This document shows, in pieces, positions 3,391 to 57,848 of a stretch of 64,000 nt of DNA. Source of the DNA: Escherichia phage vB_EcoM_ESCO10. A program made the position numbers and the translations under genes. The notes below the pieces were generated by a model. The model was not told the origin of the DNA and did no database searches. It saw only the letters and a program-made list of their open reading frames with translations. Location of the stretch: sequence record OM386655.1. One strand, given 5' to 3'. Numbering within the stretch: the first letter of the stretch is position 1; each line of letters opens with the position of its first letter.

Positions 3391-5513
3391 TACATTTTGA
3401 ATTTAGTTGGTAAAGCGGAGATGTTCAAAGATGCTGCAAGGATTTCCATAGCTTCGTTGCTTTCAGAAATAGATTCACTAATCAAGAATTGGCTGAATCC
3501 ATCCATCAGGCGAACTTCGCCGGTTTCCATCAAATGGTCACCATCGTAAACAGATTCGCTGAGCTCTGAAGGAGGTGTTACGGTAGCTTCCATAAGGTAT
3601 TTGTGAGACACTCTATCATTCATGGCAAAAGCCGCTACTTTATCAACCTTCAACAATAATCCGCGCGGAAGGATAATTTCTGCTTCTTCGGCATATTCTG
3701 TAAGGTCGCCGGGAGCGATAACTTTAACTGCTTCAGCACCTCGAATAACCATACCAATTTCAGCAATTCTATCCGCAGGGCCTTCAGGTGCAATTGGATT
3801 ACCAAACTCGTCTTCTTCCCATTCTACCTCTTCGTCATCGACTTCACCCACATCAGATGAACTACCACTAGCCAATTTAAACAACTCATCAGCGGAGGAT
3901 AAAGAACCTTCACCACCAACAAAAACGGCTTGGTTGTCGAGGGCCATATAATTTTTACCGAATTCACCAAAGATGTTAGGCTTTAATGAGGCTGACACAA
4001 AGTTCTTAAAGTAAAATGTTTTGTTATCGATATTATGGCGCAGAATTTTGTATGGCAAATCCTGACCACGATACAAAATAGTACCCTTAGGAAGTTTAAT
4101 ACCCTTAGTAAATGCTGAGTCTAAATCCTTAATCAATTTAATAGCCGTTGTATTGTTTTCGGATTCAGGTTTACCTAAAAGGAATAAGTTCATAGGAGCA
4201 TATTCAGCTGCGCAATATTCAATAATAGCGTTGCTTTCGTCTTTGGTTAGGTCCTTAGGTTTAATGAGCTCACCTGAATAAGCATATGCATCACTAATAG
4301 AATCGTTAATTAGTTTATAAACGGCTTCCATAGCGAAAGCAATTCGAGAGGCCTTTTCTGAAGGGGAGCCTTTAAAACGAGCGCTCAAGTTATTAACAAT
4401 TTTCTTAATAATATCCAGACTATTGGTGGTATTGATTTGCGAAAGGCCGCTTAAAAGTCTATCGACTTCTGTATTAAAAAATGCCATATTTTTAGAGTAA
4501 ATTTCAAACCCTTGTTTATCTCTATTAGCATAATTTAGTTTAAATTTACTATCAGTCATTAAAGCGTGCGTGAGAGCAATGGTGTATCTAAAGTTGGCAA
4601 GGTCCTCGCTCTTAGATTTAAACTGAGAAGCCTGGCGCATTTTGGTAATAGCACCTTTTTTAAAGTTCTGGCTAATCTGTTCAATACCTTCATTCTCAGG
4701 GCCTTCGGCAGTGTGAACCGGTACAGAAGCTTCAAATTCGTTATATACCTGCAATTCTTTAGGGGACAAAGTTTCAGGCTCAGCAGTAGAATACTGTGCG
4801 GCTGCTGCCATACGACGGGAAATCTTAGTACGGGTAATGACAGCCTTATCAGTACGTTTCTCTTCAACCTTAGCGATACTTGCCGCCATAGCTTCGACCT
4901 TACTTACGGCTTGACCTGTTTTCTTAGAAACATAAACTTCACCAACTTTAGACTCGACCTTAGTATAAAGATCGGCATCAATTTCAGGCATACCTTTGAT
5001 ATCTTCGATATTAGAACCACGACGTACTAAAAGAACGTAGGTATGTTTTCCACTGAATTGGAACATATCATCAACAACTTTAAACTTACCACCAGTACGA
5101 GCCATTACTAAACGAGCCAATACACGTTGTACAGTAGGGCCCTTACCTTTCATTTTCTTAGTAGGGAAACGGAACAGAACTGCGTCCATTTTAAGTTTGT
5201 TTACTTGTTCATATACTGTATCGAAAATAGTATTCAATGCACCAAGTGGGTCAGAACCAAGTCCACCTTTGAGTTCAGCCGGGGCTCCTTTGCTTGACAA
5301 ACTCATTAGAATAACATGAACATATTTGTCACCCGGCTTAACCATTTTAACTGCGTCTCCTTGAGACGCATAAGATACCATACGAGCAACAAGGTTATCA
5401 TTACCTGGAGCTTGAATAGAGAAAATCTGTGGGATACCGGAACCTGGTTTAAGATTTGTTACTGGATAGTTTTTAGCGGAATCACTATCAAAAACTTCGT
5501 TTAAATTTTCCAT
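3390..5513 (-). CDS. alt: Alt-like ADP-ribosyltransferase, paralog 1 (707 aa)
   Basis: Size and position match T4 alt (between 54 and 30); R-S-E ADP-ribosyltransferase motifs (LYRGQ ... FVSASL ... EAEIILPRG); N-terminal ~230 aa closely similar to the adjacent paralog. Confidence 0.7.
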   Translation of the reverse strand: MENLNEVFDSDSAKNYPVTNLKPGSGIPQIFSIQAPGNDNLVARMVSYASQGDAVKMVKPGDKYVHVILMSLSSKGAPAELKGGLGSDPLGALNTIFDTVYEQVNKLKMDAVLFRFPTKKMKGKGPTVQRVLARLVMARTGGKFKVVDDMFQFSGKHTYVLLVRRGSNIEDIKGMPEIDADLYTKVESKVGEVYVSKKTGQAVSKVEAMAASIAKVEEKRTDKAVITRTKISRRMAAAAQYSTAEPETLSPKELQVYNEFEASVPVHTAEGPENEGIEQISQNFKKGAITKMRQASQFKSKSEDLANFRYTIALTHALMTDSKFKLNYANRDKQGFEIYSKNMAFFNTEVDRLLSGLSQINTTNSLDIIKKIVNNLSARFKGSPSEKASRIAFAMEAVYKLINDSISDAYAYSGELIKPKDLTKDESNAIIEYCAAEYAPMNLFLLGKPESENNTTAIKLIKDLDSAFTKGIKLPKGTILYRGQDLPYKILRHNIDNKTFYFKNFVSASLKPNIFGEFGKNYMALDNQAVFVGGEGSLSSADELFKLASGSSSDVGEVDDEEVEWEEDEFGNPIAPEGPADRIAEIGMVIRGAEAVKVIAPGDLTEYAEEAEIILPRGLLLKVDKVAAFAMNDRVSHKYLMEATVTPPSELSESVYDGDHLMETGEVRLMDGFSQFLISESISESNEAMEILAASLNISALPTKFKM

Positions 5514-5516
5514 TAT

Positions 5517-7601
5517 TTACCCTTGGATGAATTTTTCTGGGATGTCGTCAAAATCAATACATGAAGCCAAAAGAGGCAACACATCAAAACGTGTGGATTT
5601 TACAAATGAGTCAAAGGACACAGGACTTTCGGAAGTATCAAAATCATCTTGGTATACAGCCAATTCACCGGTTTCCATTAATACGTCACCATCATACACT
5701 ACAGATTCTTGAAGCTCATCTGTTGTCATAACTTCAGCTTGAATGAGCTTTGTATTACTAGATGTTGTCCCGTCATTATTAGAAGCATCAGTTATTTTAT
5801 TAACTTTGACCATCAATCCGCGCGGTAGAATAACTTCAGCTTCTGTTGCTATACCTAATTGGCCTGGATAAACAACATTAACTTTATGAGCACCGTCAAT
5901 AGCCCATCCTATTTGAACTTTAACGTATTCAGGATTTTCTCTATATGCTCTTATTTCGCTTGGGTTAATAGTTATTCCTTCTTCATTTTTATCAACTGTT
6001 AGTTCATTGCGAGCTTCTGGTTCTAAAAGACCCACGCCAGCGTGAGTAACACCAAAACGACCAAAAATAATAGGAGTCAGTGAAGTAGATACAAAATTTC
6101 TAAAATAGAACACTTTATTTTTAACTAGTGCTTCGTATATAGGAGCAGTCATACTTTGGGCACGATAAACTGTAATGCCTTCTGGTATACGGTCTCCATT
6201 TTCAAAAGCTGAATCCAGATTATTAACGGCAGATTCGATATCTTTTTCGCCCATAACCTCATAGTTCTGAGGATTATAACGTCCTAAAAGAAGGTTATTG
6301 ATATCACCATATCCGGAACCACAATATTCACGAATACCACGTTTTTGAGAAGGGGTATATTTATCTGCACTATGACCCAAAGTAATATCAACCATAATAC
6401 CGCCGCCCACACCAGCAAAACTATACACACGTTTTTTAATGAACTTGGTCTTGGCTGCTTTCCACTTGGACTCAGTCAATTCATTCCAGAGGTCATCAGG
6501 TTGCCCTTTACGGGTTTTGTTGTGCGTGGCCACCCACTCGCCTTTATATTCTTCGAAGACACTGTTAATAACCGAAGCATATTTTTCCAGAGCTTTAACA
6601 GATGTTAAAGGTTCATTTTTGATAGCCGTAAGGATTCTCTCTTTAATTTTCTCTTGGATTTCACCAATAGCATGAAGTGGGAACATTTTATATTCGTAAT
6701 GCAACTCTTCAGCAGTACCTTCAGCCACTATATTAACAACCTTATTTTTAGCCGCTGGAGAATTATTATTCGTAACCATTTCCTGCGCGTCAGGGATTAA
6801 TGGAGCTGTAGCCGGTTTATTAAAATCTGCTGAAGTAGCTTCATACTTCTTAAACAGTTCGCTTTCATTACGATAAGATTCTAACGATTGGCTTGCTGCA
6901 ATCGCTCGCCGCGAAATCTTAGTTTTGGTTATAACCATTTTATCAGTGCGACGTTCTTCAACTTTAGCAATACTGCCGGCAATAGCAGTTTCTTTAGTAA
7001 CCTGCACGCCTTCTTTTTTAGAAATATAAACTTCACCAACATCAGAATCTACCTTAGTATACAGTTCAGCATTAATTCCTGGCATACCTTTGATATCTTC
7101 GATATCAGCTTGTTTACGAACTACTAGGATATACGTGTGTTTACCTGTAAATTGGTACATGGCCGGAACTACTTTGAAGCGTCCGCCTGTTTTTTGAGTT
7201 ACTAAACGTTGGATAATTCTCTGGACAACAGGACCTTGACCTTTCATTTTCTTGGTAGGAAAACGGAACATAACAGCATCCATACGAAGCTTTTTAACTT
7301 GTTCGAATACTACGTCGAAAATGGTATTAATAGCATCAATAGGAGTAGGGCCTAAGCCGCCTTTAAGTTCAGCTGGTGAACCTTTAGCTGAAAGGCTCAT
7401 AAGGATGATGTGGGCGTATTTATCACCTAATTTAACCTGTTTAATAGCATCGCCTTCAGAGGCATAAGATACCATACGAGCAACCAATTGGGATTCGGCA
7501 TTACCGATCTTCCAAATCTGGGGCACTTTAAGTTTTGGGTTTAAGTTTACAGTAGGCAGGGTGCCTTCAGACTCAAACACTTCATTTAATTGTTCGGTCA
7601 T
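5517..7601 (-). CDS. alt: Alt-like ADP-ribosyltransferase, paralog 2 (694 aa)
   Basis: Same architecture as paralog 1 (VYRAQ ... FVSTSL ... EAEVILPRG); RBS GAGGAA 6 nt upstream of ATG; only 3 nt separate it from paralog 1. Confidence 0.7.
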   Translation of the reverse strand: MTEQLNEVFESEGTLPTVNLNPKLKVPQIWKIGNAESQLVARMVSYASEGDAIKQVKLGDKYAHIILMSLSAKGSPAELKGGLGPTPIDAINTIFDVVFEQVKKLRMDAVMFRFPTKKMKGQGPVVQRIIQRLVTQKTGGRFKVVPAMYQFTGKHTYILVVRKQADIEDIKGMPGINAELYTKVDSDVGEVYISKKEGVQVTKETAIAGSIAKVEERRTDKMVITKTKISRRAIAASQSLESYRNESELFKKYEATSADFNKPATAPLIPDAQEMVTNNNSPAAKNKVVNIVAEGTAEELHYEYKMFPLHAIGEIQEKIKERILTAIKNEPLTSVKALEKYASVINSVFEEYKGEWVATHNKTRKGQPDDLWNELTESKWKAAKTKFIKKRVYSFAGVGGGIMVDITLGHSADKYTPSQKRGIREYCGSGYGDINNLLLGRYNPQNYEVMGEKDIESAVNNLDSAFENGDRIPEGITVYRAQSMTAPIYEALVKNKVFYFRNFVSTSLTPIIFGRFGVTHAGVGLLEPEARNELTVDKNEEGITINPSEIRAYRENPEYVKVQIGWAIDGAHKVNVVYPGQLGIATEAEVILPRGLMVKVNKITDASNNDGTTSSNTKLIQAEVMTTDELQESVVYDGDVLMETGELAVYQDDFDTSESPVSFDSFVKSTRFDVLPLLASCIDFDDIPEKFIQG

Positions 7602-53451: not shown

Positions 53452-55269
53452 TTACGACATCCAAGCCTTACGAAGCTGTGGGTCATTTCCAAGGAGCATT
53501 TCGAACTGGTCTTTCCAATCTTCAGGTAATTGGACCACATCAAATTTAGGGTCTTGAATCATTCGGCGGTATTCAGCCTTCTCAAGAGAACCGAGACCTT
53601 TGATATAACGAATAGAATGTTTAGGCAACTTATCCTTAGCTTCATTATAAGACGGAACATCATAGAACCATTCCTGTTCTTTACCAACCTGTGCAATAAT
53701 TACCGGAGTTTTACAGAAACGAATTCGTCCCTGTTCAAACAATTCAGGCCATTGACTAAAGAAGGCTAATAACGAAGGATAAATCGAACCTGTACCATCC
53801 ACATCGGCGTCAGTCATGATAGCGATATTACGATAGTTGGTTTTATTTGCAGGTTCGCCAATAATTAATCCTGTGATTGCACAGATATCAAATAGTTCCT
53901 TGTTCTTCATGATATCAGCAGCAGTCATACCCCAGGTATTCATAACCTTACCGCGTAACGGATAACCGCCTTGGAGGTCTTTATTACGAACCTCAATGAA
54001 AGGGCCCATTGCAGAATCACCTTCGGTTAAGAACAGAGTCGTATCAGCATCTTTGCTGTACATATTGGCTTTAATATGCTTATGGACCTTAGCTTTCGAA
54101 GCTTTCTTAGCAGCTTTAGTTTCGGCTGCCTTTTCAGCTGCTAATTTACGTGCTAAAGCAGCTTCGATAATAGGCATAATCAGCCCATCAACTTTAAGAA
54201 TAGCTTGAGCAATTTTCTTAGCATCAATTTGGATATGATTACGAATCTCTCCAAATGGAGAGGTCAAACGTTCTTTAGTCTGTGAATCAAAACGCATATT
54301 GCTCATATCACGAATGAACATAACCATAGTAAGGCATTCTTTAACACGGGCCTTGGTTACTTCGATTCCACGATATTTCTTTTTAATACCTGGCAGAAGG
54401 TGCTCACAAATATCATCGAATACACATTCAACATGGTGGCCGCCATTCTTGGTATGAATATTGTTTACATACGTCAATTGACGGAACCCGTCCGGAGAAG
54501 GAGTAAATGCCATCGAAACATTATCAGTTTCCTGGATTACAAAGTCTTCACCAAATTGCTTAGCATACTTTTTAAAGTTACCATCTACTTTTTTACCGTT
54601 AAAAGTAAATTGGATATCCGGATAAATTACGGCCAGTGTTTGAAGTCGGTCTAATGTAATATCCAGATAAATTTGGGACAGACTATTTTCTTCAAAATGA
54701 TTAAAGTCTGGGGTGAATATAACTGAAGTACCTTTACCTTTAGATTTCTTGGTAGACCAACCTTTGTTTTCCATTCCATTGGAACAGTTAACTGTAATCT
54801 CATTCTCGCCATCAGAGGTGATGCCTGTGAACAAAACAGAGAAGATATTAGTTAAACTACTACCGACGCCATTCATGCCACCTGTCTTACGCTCTGCGTC
54901 ATCTCCAAAGTTACCACCTGCCTTTGGAATAGTCCATGCAGCTACAGGGCCCGGAATTTGTTCACCGTTTTGATCGGTAACCATTGCTTGCGGAATACCA
55001 CGGCCATTATCAGAAACTGAAACCTGGTTATTCTTAATTTGGACATCAATTTTATTTGCGAATTTAAAATTGGTACGAATAGCTTCATCCACAGAGTTAT
55101 CGATGATTTCGTCAATCAGTTTTACCAGGCCAGGAACATAGTTCACCTGCGTAAAATTACCGAACAGGAATCGCCCATGAGCTTCATTAGCACTTGAACC
55201 GATATACATCCCACTACGTTTTTTGATATGTTCAATGTCGGACAGTACTTTAATTTCATTCTTAATCAT
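53452..55269 (-). CDS. 39: DNA topoisomerase II large (ATPase) subunit, intact gp39 (605 aa, no gene 60 split)
   Basis: GHKL ATPase and TOPRIM-like segments in one continuous ORF; RBS GAGGAAATAAC-ATG. Confidence 0.8.
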   Translation of the reverse strand: MIKNEIKVLSDIEHIKKRSGMYIGSSANEAHGRFLFGNFTQVNYVPGLVKLIDEIIDNSVDEAIRTNFKFANKIDVQIKNNQVSVSDNGRGIPQAMVTDQNGEQIPGPVAAWTIPKAGGNFGDDAERKTGGMNGVGSSLTNIFSVLFTGITSDGENEITVNCSNGMENKGWSTKKSKGKGTSVIFTPDFNHFEENSLSQIYLDITLDRLQTLAVIYPDIQFTFNGKKVDGNFKKYAKQFGEDFVIQETDNVSMAFTPSPDGFRQLTYVNNIHTKNGGHHVECVFDDICEHLLPGIKKKYRGIEVTKARVKECLTMVMFIRDMSNMRFDSQTKERLTSPFGEIRNHIQIDAKKIAQAILKVDGLIMPIIEAALARKLAAEKAAETKAAKKASKAKVHKHIKANMYSKDADTTLFLTEGDSAMGPFIEVRNKDLQGGYPLRGKVMNTWGMTAADIMKNKELFDICAITGLIIGEPANKTNYRNIAIMTDADVDGTGSIYPSLLAFFSQWPELFEQGRIRFCKTPVIIAQVGKEQEWFYDVPSYNEAKDKLPKHSIRYIKGLGSLEKAEYRRMIQDPKFDVVQLPEDWKDQFEMLLGNDPQLRKAWMS

Positions 55270-55293: not shown

Positions 55294-55322
55294 ATATTAT
55301 CCCATTTAAATTAAAGCATAAA
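55294..55322 (-). promoter_or_regulatory. MotA-dependent middle promoter for gene 39
   Basis: minus strand taTGCTTTAa - 12 nt - TAATAT about 25 nt upstream of gp39 ATG. Confidence 0.45.
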
Positions 55323-55337
55323 AGGGCCGAAGCCCTT
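55322..55337 (-). promoter_or_regulatory. UUCG-tetraloop hairpin AAGGGC-uucg-GCCCUU
   Basis: Perfect 6-bp stem at the stop of the lipoprotein gene, upstream of the gp39 promoter. Confidence 0.4.
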
Positions 55338-55596
55338 ATTCAAATCGAATGGTGGAGTTTTTGAACAGCAAACCAGAACAAACAGTACCTTTAACAGTTT
55401 TACCGGTAGGTCCGACAGCTTTAAAGCCTGTACGTTGGAAATCATCTTCAGAACATCCAAACAAGCTATAACCAGTGATTTGAACTTGTTCAAAACCATT
55501 GGCATTCAAAACCTTAGTAGCATTATCGGCGTCAGTGCACCCGACCAGCGAAACAGCAAGAACCAGTGCAGCAATAGTACGATTTACGTATTTCAT
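55336..55596 (-). CDS. predicted lipoprotein (86 aa)
   Basis: Signal peptide with lipobox LVGC (MKYVNRTIAALVLAVSLVGCTD); two further Cys in the mature part. Confidence 0.55.
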   Translation of the reverse strand: MKYVNRTIAALVLAVSLVGCTDADNATKVLNANGFEQVQITGYSLFGCSEDDFQRTGFKAVGPTGKTVKGTVCSGLLFKNSTIRFE

Positions 55597-55602
55597 ATTT
55601 TC

Positions 55603-55776
55603 TCACTTAAGCAGGTCATAGAACCCGCCGTTAACATGTTTAGGAGCCGAGACTAACCGAACAGCCAGCCGATGGCAATCAGGACAAACATCAGTATCTC
55701 TTTCAGAGATTTTCTTGATTTTCTCGTATTCTTTCGCACAGTCTTCAGATTGGCATTTGTAATCATAAAGTGGCAT
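55603..55776 (-). CDS. zinc-ribbon protein, FmdB-like (57 aa), not in ORF track
   Basis: MPLYDYKCQSEDCAKEYEKIKKISERDTDVCPDCHRLAV.. with CxxxC ... CxxC spacing; SD AAGGA upstream; stop 6 nt before lipoprotein ATG. Confidence 0.45.
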   Translation of the reverse strand: MPLYDYKCQSEDCAKEYEKIKKISERDTDVCPDCHRLAVRLVSAPKHVNGGFYDLLK

Positions 55777-55782
55777 TCTAAA

Positions 55783-56172
55783 TTATTCCTTAAAGTGAGC
55801 TTTCAACATCTGGAAAACTGACCAGGCTTCTTCATTATTACTAATGGTGATTTTAGTCAACGGGAATGCAGTGATTTCTGGAGCTTCAGTTTCTTCATCG
55901 TCAGGTACACCGTCTTCATCAATAGCATATTCGGTAAAGAATTTTCTCTCTGTTGGATGAATGAACAAATCTCTAGTTTCGCAGTCCCATAATAAGGCTT
56001 GGCAGACTATGCCTTTATTAATAGATGCAGCTCTAAAAGCCCCAGCCTCATCAATCCATTTAGCCACCATAGCATAATAAACGGGTTTCATAGAAGAAAA
56101 TTCATTCATAGAAGCCTGGTCTTTAAACTGGTACCATTTACCAAATTCAAATTTAGATTCTTTATTAAGCAT
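55783..56172 (-). CDS. hypothetical protein (129 aa)
   Basis: Track ORF 55783..56265 trimmed to MLNKESKFEF.. with perfect SD GGAGG; overlaps upstream stop (ATGCTTAA). Confidence 0.45.
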   Translation of the reverse strand: MLNKESKFEFGKWYQFKDQASMNEFSSMKPVYYAMVAKWIDEAGAFRAASINKGIVCQALLWDCETRDLFIHPTERKFFTEYAIDEDGVPDDEETEAPEITAFPLTKITISNNEEAWSVFQMLKAHFKE

Positions 56173-56464: not shown

Positions 56465-57031
56465 TTATGCACGATGAATATTGGCATACTCGACGATAAA
56501 GCTTTCAGGAACCACCTTAAAGGTTCCTATGAATACGATGTTATAGAGCTTAACACCTTCTTCAACCCACTGGTCAGTGATGTACCCAGACATGCTAGTG
56601 GTTTCATAAGTACCAAACTCTTCATCAATATATTCAAATGGTTTAGGTGAAACGAAAAAGACGCCTTGACCTAATTTCCATTTAAAATCAACACCAACAT
56701 GAGACTGGTCAATGGTTTCAACTTCTTGAGCCGGCACGCCACGGATATCATTGCTTTCGCACACATATCCATCATGAGATTCAACTTCTTCAACTACAGG
56801 AGCGACATATCCGGTAAATTCAGTTGATTCCAGGAATTTAGCACGCACATAAGCGAATTGGGTTTCCGTCTGGCCATTTTTAGGAATGATGCGTACTTTT
56901 ACTTCAGAGTTTTCAGGGCAGACACCTTCTTTAAGTTGAATACTAACAACTTCAACTAAACGGCCTGCAGCTTTTGAACGAGATTGTTTGGATACGCGAA
57001 CGATACCACCGATATTGGAAATAGAAATCAT
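56465..57031 (-). CDS. hypothetical protein (188 aa), paralog family member
   Basis: C-terminal block GYITDQWVEEGVKLYNIVFIGTFKVVPESFIV shared with the adjacent 247-aa protein. Confidence 0.5.
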   Translation of the reverse strand: MISISNIGGIVRVSKQSRSKAAGRLVEVVSIQLKEGVCPENSEVKVRIIPKNGQTETQFAYVRAKFLESTEFTGYVAPVVEEVESHDGYVCESNDIRGVPAQEVETIDQSHVGVDFKWKLGQGVFFVSPKPFEYIDEEFGTYETTSMSGYITDQWVEEGVKLYNIVFIGTFKVVPESFIVEYANIHRA

Positions 57032-57067: not shown

Positions 57068-57102
57068 AGAGCCATTATAACATGGCTCTCGATAAAGTAA
57101 AC
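57068..57102 (-). promoter_or_regulatory. early promoter GTTTAC-N17-TATAAT, -10 inside inverted repeat
   Basis: GAGCCAT ... ATGGCTC flanks the -10; upstream of ORF 56465..57031. Confidence 0.5.
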
Positions 57103-57104
57103 TA

Positions 57105-57848
57105 TTAGTTCAAAACATTCACAACTGCACTACGAGGTACTACACTAAAATCACCAGCATGGACAACATTCAGAAGCTCAACGCCATCTTCAATCCATTG
57201 GTCTGTTACCCACCCACAGATAGGATTATCAAAAGGACGACGGACGCTTACTGGCTTACACAACAAATCGGACGGGTCTTGTTCGACTTCGACTTCACGG
57301 AAAAGGCCGAATTCAGCTTCATAGATAACAATTTTCTCTACTTTGTTATTATCTAACCGGCGACCGTAGATGACGTAAGATTTAGCAAACCAGTCGCTTT
57401 TGGTAAATTTTTCAACAACAAATGCACCTTCGCCGAAAACCTCGGACAAGGTTTTATAGCCAGAAACCAAGGCCTTAGTTTTAACTGCAGGTTCGACTAA
57501 TTGATAGGTTTTGTTAGTTTCGATAGTCATAATAGGTTCCTTAATTTCCAGTGGTTTAACAGGGCCTACATAAGTGCTTACAACATCAAAATCGATAAGC
57601 TGATTAGGAACTAAACGAATAAAGGCAGCCATTTCTCGTTGCGACAATCGAATAGTATGGATTTCGGGTCCGCCACATTCTTGAACTGTTACAGATTTAA
57701 TATTATCAAGCTCATCAGGCCCAATAGAAAGAATACGAAATTCATTGCCTTTAGTCATCTTTTTAAGGATATCATAAGCTTGGTTGTAGAGCTTAAGTTC
57801 AGCGTACGGGGTAACGATGTATTTGGCATTCGGATCGAAAGTGTTCAT
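57105..57848 (-). CDS. hypothetical protein (247 aa), paralog family member
   Basis: C-terminal block CGWVTDQWIEDGVELLNVVHAGDFSVVPRSAVV shared with the adjacent 188-aa protein. Confidence 0.5.
   Translation of the reverse strand: MNTFDPNAKYIVTPYAELKLYNQAYDILKKMTKGNEFRILSIGPDELDNIKSVTVQECGGPEIHTIRLSQREMAAFIRLVPNQLIDFDVVSTYVGPVKPLEIKEPIMTIETNKTYQLVEPAVKTKALVSGYKTLSEVFGEGAFVVEKFTKSDWFAKSYVIYGRRLDNNKVEKIVIYEAEFGLFREVEVEQDPSDLLCKPVSVRRPFDNPICGWVTDQWIEDGVELLNVVHAGDFSVVPRSAVVNVLN

Follow-up and report, generated by a model that had tools for sequence, protein, structure and literature searches.

The minus strand of a 64,000-nucleotide (nt) stretch of Escherichia phage vB_EcoM_ESCO10 (record OM386655.1; hereafter the window) carries, upstream of the topoisomerase gene 39, two small open reading frames (ORFs) that are almost certainly the orthologs of T4 genes 39.2 and 39.1. 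Each would be an accessory early gene of a T4-like phage, non-essential and independent of the other: gene 39.2 (an nwgI ortholog) specifies a zinc ribbon with a putative role in modulating host GroEL, and gene 39.1 a predicted lipoprotein. Taken jointly, the identity and mutual independence of the two genes, the GroEL role of one and the lipoprotein status of the other form a likely reading. The genes themselves are already known, having long been annotated as T4-type 39.2 and 39.1, and for the window itself our analysis has little consequence, as both are annotated T4 orthologs, one of them with a published function. An initial annotation, made from the letters of the window, had interpreted the two ORFs as a zinc-ribbon gene coupled to the gene of a small lipoprotein. 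Its protein classes stand, its functional coupling does not, and the T4 identity of the genes and the GroEL function had escaped it.

Genes 39.2 and 39.1 in a T4-like phage

Gene 39.2 occupies positions 55603–55776 (minus strand) and encodes 57 amino acids (aa), an assignment resting on its ORF, on matches to PF09723 and TIGR02605, and on orthology to T4. Downstream lies gene 39.1 (55336–55596, minus strand), an 86-aa prolipoprotein ORF that matches phrog_902 (E = 1e-34). A direct reading of the sequence confirmed the minus-strand coordinates and lengths given initially for both ORFs, as well as the claimed 6-nt gap, which reads GAAAAT and extends from the 39.2 stop codon TGA to the 39.1 ATG (55597–55602, minus strand). 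The pair had also been placed upstream of gene 39, and a 605-aa ORF for the large subunit of DNA topoisomerase II was indeed found downstream (53452–55269, minus strand; phrog_543, E = 1.4e-280; Pfam GyrB, HATPase and Toprim), its start 66 bases beyond 39.1. The zinc-ribbon gene was correctly noted to be missing from the ORF track, the sole reason being that its 57 aa fall short of the default cut-off of 60 aa.

The surrounding region is 93% identical in nucleotide sequence to Escherichia phage VR5, a Dhakavirus, whose annotation lists, in the order of transcription, motB, cef, goF, a gene 'similar to T4 gp39.2', a gene 'similar to T4 gp39.1' and gene 39. T4 has the same gene order across the motB-to-39 region, and Pfam and PHROG searches identified Cef, GoF, MotB and gp39 as the neighbours in the window, which belongs to a T4-like Dhakavirus phage. 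Substitutions relative to resequenced T4 were concentrated at third codon positions: the 21 differences in the zinc-ribbon gene fall on codon positions 1, 2 and 3 in the proportion 2/0/19, and those in the lipoprotein gene in the proportion 21/8/46. In addition, tblastn matched 960 phage records with the zinc ribbon as query and 1069 with the lipoprotein. The substitution pattern and this broad spread argue that both ORFs are real genes and not chance frames.

Gp39.2 is an FmdB-family zinc ribbon that probably modulates GroEL

A hidden Markov model (HMM) search with the product of 39.2 (MPLYDYKCQSEDCAKEYEKIKKISERDTDVCPDCHRLAVRLVSAPKHVNGGFYDLLK, followed by the stop codon TGA) exceeded the curated cut-offs of both family models, with 43.7 bits for PF09723 (E = 2.7e-11; cut-off 34.4) and 45.8 bits for TIGR02605 (cut-off 31.3), bearing out the earlier assignment to the FmdB family of zinc ribbons. 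The domain begins at the initiator methionine (MPLYDYKC8), and cysteines 8, 13, 31 and 34 are arranged as C-x4-C … C-x2-C, with 17 residues between the two pairs. Of the cysteine pattern described previously, the second knuckle, CxxC, was correct, while the first, given as CxxxC, is actually C-x4-C. On the minus strand, the codons of the predicted zinc ligands C8 and C13 are found at 55753–55755 and 55738–55740, and those of C31 and C34 at 55684–55686 and 55675–55677.

Gp39.2 has in common with the FmdB family the MPxYxYxC start and two cysteine knuckles spaced by 17 residues; it differs from it in the first knuckle, which is CxxC in the family, and in having no Ser-rich tail. A degenerate, Ser-rich C-terminal tail is, according to the TIGRFAM description, typical of many TIGR02605 members; its lack in Gp39.2 does not speak against membership, as family members need not have such a tail. 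The protein ends in the tail SAPKHVNGGFYDLLK, which is kept among T4-like orthologs and conserved as SAP..NGGFYDLLK; the orthologs of RB69, Krischvirus and Jiaodavirus retain SAP...YD..K. The invariant AP...YD..K tail hints at a functional surface of Gp39.2. A sequence search against solved structures gave no match for the protein. As a side observation, the knuckles vary among the orthologs between CxxC, Cx4C and possibly CxxH, the last in Krischvirus: in the 39.2 gene of Krischvirus GoldenSnicker (2501–2674 of the extracted stretch) C-E-E-H replaces the first cysteine pair, and the Jiaodavirus gene (2236–2412 of the extracted stretch) specifies first a CxxC and then a Cx4C.

Compared with the 58-aa protein of resequenced T4 (strain GT7), 56 of the 57 residues of the window protein are identical (98.2%). 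The T4 gene sits in the same slot between goF and 39.1, and its product has the same zinc-ribbon core and the same C-terminal tail; it differs by a lysine at residue 11, which is glutamate in the window protein, and by a terminal glycine that the window protein lacks. T4 Gp39.2, under the name NwgI, was reportedly presented as a GroEL/GroES modulator by Ang and Georgopoulos in 2012, in Genetics 190:989. Within the FmdB family, a cellular function is known just for the phage protein. Excerpts from two publications, a later essay by Georgopoulos himself and an independent paper citing the work, describe the 58-aa protein encoded by T4 39.2 as subtly modulating GroES/GroEL by pushing GroEL toward its open conformation (PMC5153855, PMC4396842); in this conformation, an excerpt from the first states, GroEL is able to bind both host and phage co-chaperonins (PMC5153855). 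By the same excerpts, certain groEL mutant hosts block T4 from which 39.2 has been deleted (PMC5153855, PMC4396842).

With 98% of its residues shared with the T4 protein, the window protein should have the same activity, and by this orthology a GroEL-modulating role of 39.2 is very probable. Gp39.2 would thus be a cytoplasmic protein that shifts host GroEL to an open state accepting GroES or the phage co-chaperonin, and would thereby aid phage growth on hosts with marginal GroEL. PHROG and RefSeq use a different product name, 'FmdB-like transcriptional regulator', after the protein that gave the family its name, and read literally this would make Gp39.2 a DNA-binding transcriptional regulator. 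The label goes back to name transfer from one putative regulator, however; the protein is a 57-aa zinc ribbon in which a Pfam scan revealed no DNA-binding domain; and the genetics and biochemistry of T4, as excerpted, indicate GroEL (PMC5153855, PMC4396842). We consider it extremely improbable that Gp39.2 is such a regulator. The label masks what is an experimentally supported role of Gp39.2 in GroEL modulation.

gp39.1 is a predicted lipoprotein with a conserved, putatively periplasmic domain

The 86-aa product of 39.1 (MKYVNRTIAALVLAVSLVGCTDADNATKVLNANGFEQVQITGYSLFGCSEDDFQRTGFKAVGPTGKTVKGTVCSGLLFKNSTIRFE) is predicted to consist of a signal peptide of 19 residues and, from Cys20 onward, a mature domain of 67. 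Its n-region, MKYVNR, contains the basic residues K2 and R6, and the hydrophobic core has a mean Kyte-Doolittle value of 2.46. Direct reading and a pattern test placed the lipobox L17-V18-G19-C20 at 55537–55548 (minus strand), with the Cys20 codon TGC at 55537–55539. The test asked for a [LVI][ASTVI][GAS]C lipobox (a PROSITE-style pattern following a PS51257-type rule), a cysteine within residues 15–35, a basic n-region and a hydrophobic h-region, and gp39.1 displays each of these features. The canonical lipobox reported before, LVGC with Cys20, is therefore present. A strict lipobox also occurs in 55 of 63 homologs (clustered at 90% identity) and in 114 of the 148 best remote representatives, and most of the exceptions have either a near-lipobox or an N-terminal hydrophobic (transmembrane) anchor without a cysteine. 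On these grounds, gp39.1 is very likely a lipoprotein. The Sec pathway would export it, Cys20 would receive the lipid, and signal peptidase II would remove the signal peptide. Cys20 is followed by threonine at position +2 and aspartate at +3; across the homologs, the +2 residue is almost always threonine, usually with aspartate next. According to the +2 rule of E. coli, threonine at this position predicts sorting to the outer membrane.

In the family alignment, C48 of the mature domain is invariant and C73 is at least 90% conserved, which suggests a periplasmic C48-C73 disulfide. An AlphaFold2 (AF2) model of gp39.1 (predicted local distance difference test score, pLDDT, 75.5) shows a helix (residues 23–32) packed against a sheet of four strands. 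gp39.1 is 96.5% identical to its VR5 counterpart and, over the full 86 aa, 74% identical to that of resequenced T4, with which it shares the signal peptide, the lipobox, the three cysteines and the locus.

Database searches yielded one PHROG family for the window protein, phrog_902, which has no assigned function. No Pfam family matched gp39.1, and 26 family members gave lipid-attachment-site and other noise matches; NCBIfam returned just the signal-peptide regions of MepS, LptM and others, as weak hits far under the cut-offs. A viral fold library returned members of gp39.1's own family and nothing else, and PADLOC gave no match. Nor does gp39.1 resemble an o-spanin: its gene is flanked by 39.2 and gene 39, with no adjoining i-spanin gene, and the mature protein has one proline in 67 residues and a predicted folded domain.

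Errors in the T4 reference record obscure both genes

Positions 5570–5740 of the T4 reference NC_000866 (171 nt) had 100% identity just to M89919, X06220, AF158101 and NC_000866 itself. At least 10 independent T4 resequencing records share one different version, and all are 93% identical to the NC_000866 stretch. The RefSeq stretch thus contains some 12 clustered sequence errors, two of them frameshifts; in that record 39.2 is reduced to 45 aa and 39.1 to a 65-aa fragment without signal peptide and lipobox. In T4 GT7 (422–861 of the extracted stretch), both genes read as intact, 39.2 with 58 aa and 39.1 with 86 aa and the lipobox LIGC. Since the resequenced genomes differ and GT7 reads intact, the T4 reference annotation of both genes is wrong, and these sequence errors have hidden the lipoprotein nature of gp39.1. 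The notion that T4 39.2 and 39.1 are pseudogenes, as the frameshifts and the missing lipobox cysteine would imply, was rejected, the aberrant version being confined to Sanger-era records.

The errors have propagated. In the supplement to the CRISPRi-ART screen of T4, the gene table lists 39.1 as a PHROG singleton, and the 39.1 guides (T4 5565–5615) sit at the false RefSeq start within the erroneous stretch (PMC11879866). The reference errors have thus led gp39.1 to be filed as a signal-less 65-aa 'singleton' and the guides of a genome-wide knock-down to be misplaced.

39.2 and 39.1 are adjacent without forming a module

The initial annotation had proposed that the zinc ribbon and the lipoprotein are coupled, that is, a translationally and functionally linked module serving superinfection exclusion or receptor masking. 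The local arrangement invites this idea: the gap is 6 nt, a weak Shine-Dalgarno-like GUGAG spans the 39.2 stop codon, and adjacency is retained in Tequatrovirus and Dhakavirus, as well as in Jiaodavirus, where both genes are present with a tiny ORF in between. From the sequence of the junction, translational coupling from 39.2 to 39.1 may be inferred. Tight spacing is not specific to this pair, however, as cef and goF overlap and the stop codon of goF, directly upstream of 39.2, likewise lies 6 nt before the 39.2 ATG.

The occurrence of the two genes also speaks against a module. In RB69 and Krischvirus, 39.2 is located upstream of gene 39 without 39.1, and in the Slopekvirus Miro the lipoprotein gene resides in another region of the genome. 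The lipoprotein occurs without a nearby zinc ribbon in phages of Vibrio, Burkholderia, Stenotrophomonas and Serratia and in several temperate elements: phmmer (E up to 10) found no zinc-ribbon ORF within ~2.5 kb of the lipoprotein in four non-T4-like phages, and no neighbour was flagged as PF09723 in seven metagenomic or genomic contexts. More generally, no conserved partner gene for the lipoprotein emerged from 11 non-T4-type contexts. Among Escherichia phage records, tblastn detected 39.2 in 610 and 39.1 in 421. Finally, the products are assigned to different compartments, with GroEL as the cytoplasmic target of Gp39.2 in the excerpted T4 work (PMC5153855, PMC4396842) and gp39.1 predicted to be exported. 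Independent occurrence and separate compartments leave the functional coupling unsupported, and a joint exclusion module is highly improbable. Genes 39.2 and 39.1 adjoin owing to a compact operon and not as a working pair.

What lies between 39.2 and gene 39 varies in the manner of a small hyperplastic site. In RB69, the position of 39.1 is taken by an unrelated 140-aa gene without a signal peptide (ORF005, 5547–5969 of the extracted stretch), and in Krischvirus 39.2 is followed by a 36-aa ORF and then gene 39.

Possible roles of gp39.1 in the cell envelope

The gp39.1 family extends over virulent as well as temperate phages that infect many Gram-negative hosts, with 2297 clusters at 50% identity recovered by a profile search. 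tblastn located it in T4-like phages of Escherichia, Klebsiella, Enterobacter, Serratia, Yersinia and Cronobacter, and additionally in Vibrio, Burkholderia, Stenotrophomonas and Ackermannviridae phages; a more distant homolog belongs to an Acinetobacter integrative element. The mature domain is 40–75% identical across phages of E. coli, Klebsiella, Vibrio, Burkholderia and Stenotrophomonas. In temperate phages and elements, relatives are encoded a few genes from integrases; elsewhere they are found among early accessory genes, in one case in a lambdoid nin-like region and in some contexts rich in anti-defence genes. The anti-defence genes seen beside distant homologs in early regions comprise Acb2/Tad1-hairpin, Tad2-like and Gad2, the contexts including the metagenome contig Ga0642624_02621 (2042–2299 and 8293–8478) and a second extracted stretch (5417–6394).

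Phages produce other small lipoproteins, among them T5 Llp and the Cor proteins of T1, phi80 and N15, which like gp39.1 are short (precursors of 75–77 aa) and have cysteines in the mature part. An Llp/Cor-type gp39.1 would plug the receptor of its own phage from the periplasmic side of the outer membrane, thereby blocking superinfection and shielding progeny from receptor in cell debris. The small size of gp39.1, its gene's position in an early unit and its outer-membrane-type lipobox are in keeping with this idea, as is the proximity of homologs to integrases, a typical position for lysogenic conversion. Furthermore, 4 of 26 family members matched phrog_1119, 'Cor superinfection exclusion protein' (best E = 2.1e-5). 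When the family profile was aligned by hhalign with T1 Cor, however, residues 1–25 alone aligned, and with T5 Llp residues 1–22 alone, in both cases the signal peptide; we rejected a relationship to either protein, and the signal peptide offers the simplest explanation of the phrog_1119 matches. Llp and Cor, which block FhuA, further differ from gp39.1 in genomic neighbourhood, and the gp39.1 family spans many receptors. T4 and T2, which both carry 39.1, use different receptors. The mature domain is kept across phages of many hosts that are unable to share one receptor; some relatives have transmembrane anchors that would hold them at the inner membrane; and 39.1 adjoins a topoisomerase gene rather than that of a receptor-binding protein. 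A plug of this kind, with its dual effect on superinfection and progeny, is therefore unlikely.

Imm and Spackle of T4 are comparable in setting, being, like gp39.1, early, non-essential and envelope-located products of the same type of phage; PHROG and viral fold searches revealed no homology of either to gp39.1. Spackle is a small periplasmic inhibitor of the T4 tail lysozyme. By analogy, gp39.1 could act in the periplasm by inhibiting or regulating an enzyme of the cell wall or of lysis, altering the timing of lysis or the resistance to lysis from without; the model would be either Spackle and its tail lysozyme or a PepSY/YpeB-like regulator of a lytic transglycosylase. We regard such an enzyme regulator, in either form, as a rather doubtful proposition.

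Strong conservation of the domain across phages with unrelated receptors, together with the transmembrane anchors of some relatives, points with low confidence to a conserved target in the envelope or periplasm. By its predicted sorting, gp39.1 would sit in the inner leaflet of the outer membrane with its 67-residue alpha+beta domain, probably containing a C48-C73 disulfide, in the periplasm. Our best guess at its function is that it binds a conserved periplasmic or envelope component so as to protect the infected or lysogenic cell. The protection would be akin to exclusion or to lysis-from-without resistance, and would not consist in plugging one specific receptor. This protective envelope role is tentative. 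Equally tentative is the broader possibility that the family represents membrane-tethered periplasmic domains with a new mechanism of envelope takeover or broad exclusion, unrelated to Llp, Cor, Imm and Spackle.

Several points weigh against the reading of the two genes as a whole. Sorting to the outer membrane is predicted from a single feature, the E. coli +2 rule. A sequence search against solved structures recovered no relative of gp39.1, and our literature search found no paper mentioning T4 gp39.1. Neither 39.2 nor 39.1 appears in the main texts on CRISPRi-ART and HIDEN-SEQ, and in the CRISPRi-ART screen of T4, as tabulated in the supplement, both were called 'Not Fit' in laboratory infection (PMC11879866). 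The 'Not Fit' calls fit accessory genes and are functionally uninformative; for 39.1, the call is weak evidence, given that the guides were designed on the erroneous RefSeq start. The gp39.1 family ranks among the more widespread lipoprotein families of phages, and the protein would be a sensible subject for assays of envelope effects and exclusion.

Transcription signals and neighbouring genes

Next to 39.2 lies the goF (comC-alpha) ortholog (55783–56172, minus strand; phrog_622, E = 1.5e-18; VR5 and T4 annotation), its start set by homology to VR5 and by a GGAGA Shine-Dalgarno sequence. Upstream of motB, the promoter scan identified an early-promoter-like site, TTTACT-16-TATAAT with a TG extension (57074–57101, minus strand; 10 of 12 matches), and it detected no other minus-strand promoter-like site between this one and 39.1. 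We take it to be the candidate start of a motB-cef-goF-39.2-39.1 transcription unit. At the other end, a terminator scan found an intrinsic-terminator-like hairpin that overlaps the 39.1 stop codon (AAGGGC-TTCG-GCCCTT followed by TTTTAT; 55322–55337, minus strand). The fold (–12.6 kcal/mol over 56 nt; z = –1.64 relative to shuffled sequences) is weak evidence alone; the hairpin is conserved in T4. A compact early unit seems to end at this hairpin, with 39.2 and 39.1 as its final cistrons.

Beyond the hairpin, the sequence contains a MotA-box-like ATGCTTTA (55312–55319), separated by 12 nt from TAATAT (55294–55299), an arrangement that presumably corresponds to the MotA-dependent middle-promoter consensus of T4. 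The element (55294–55319, minus strand) is a probable middle promoter of gene 39; the sigma-70 scan missed it, as expected for a promoter without a –35 element. Gene 39 of the window is a single, unsplit ORF that spans T4 gp39 and gp60 in fused form, without the mobA/60.1 insertion or the translational bypass of gene 60 found in T4.

At the goF-39.2 junction (55777–55782), the window has a 4-nt insertion, TAGA, relative to T4, as a result of which the AAGGA Shine-Dalgarno sequence of 39.2 lies ~11–12 nt upstream of the ATG instead of ~8 nt. Lastly, MotB (56465–57031, minus strand, 188 aa) and the ORF in the position of motB.1 (57105–57848, minus strand, 247 aa) have similar C-terminal segments, GYITDQWVEEGVKLYNIVFIGTFKVVPESFIV and GWVTDQWIEDGVELLNVVHAGDFSVVPRSAVV, and residues 145–181 of MotB match phrog_2333, which suggests that the two proteins carry a duplicated domain.

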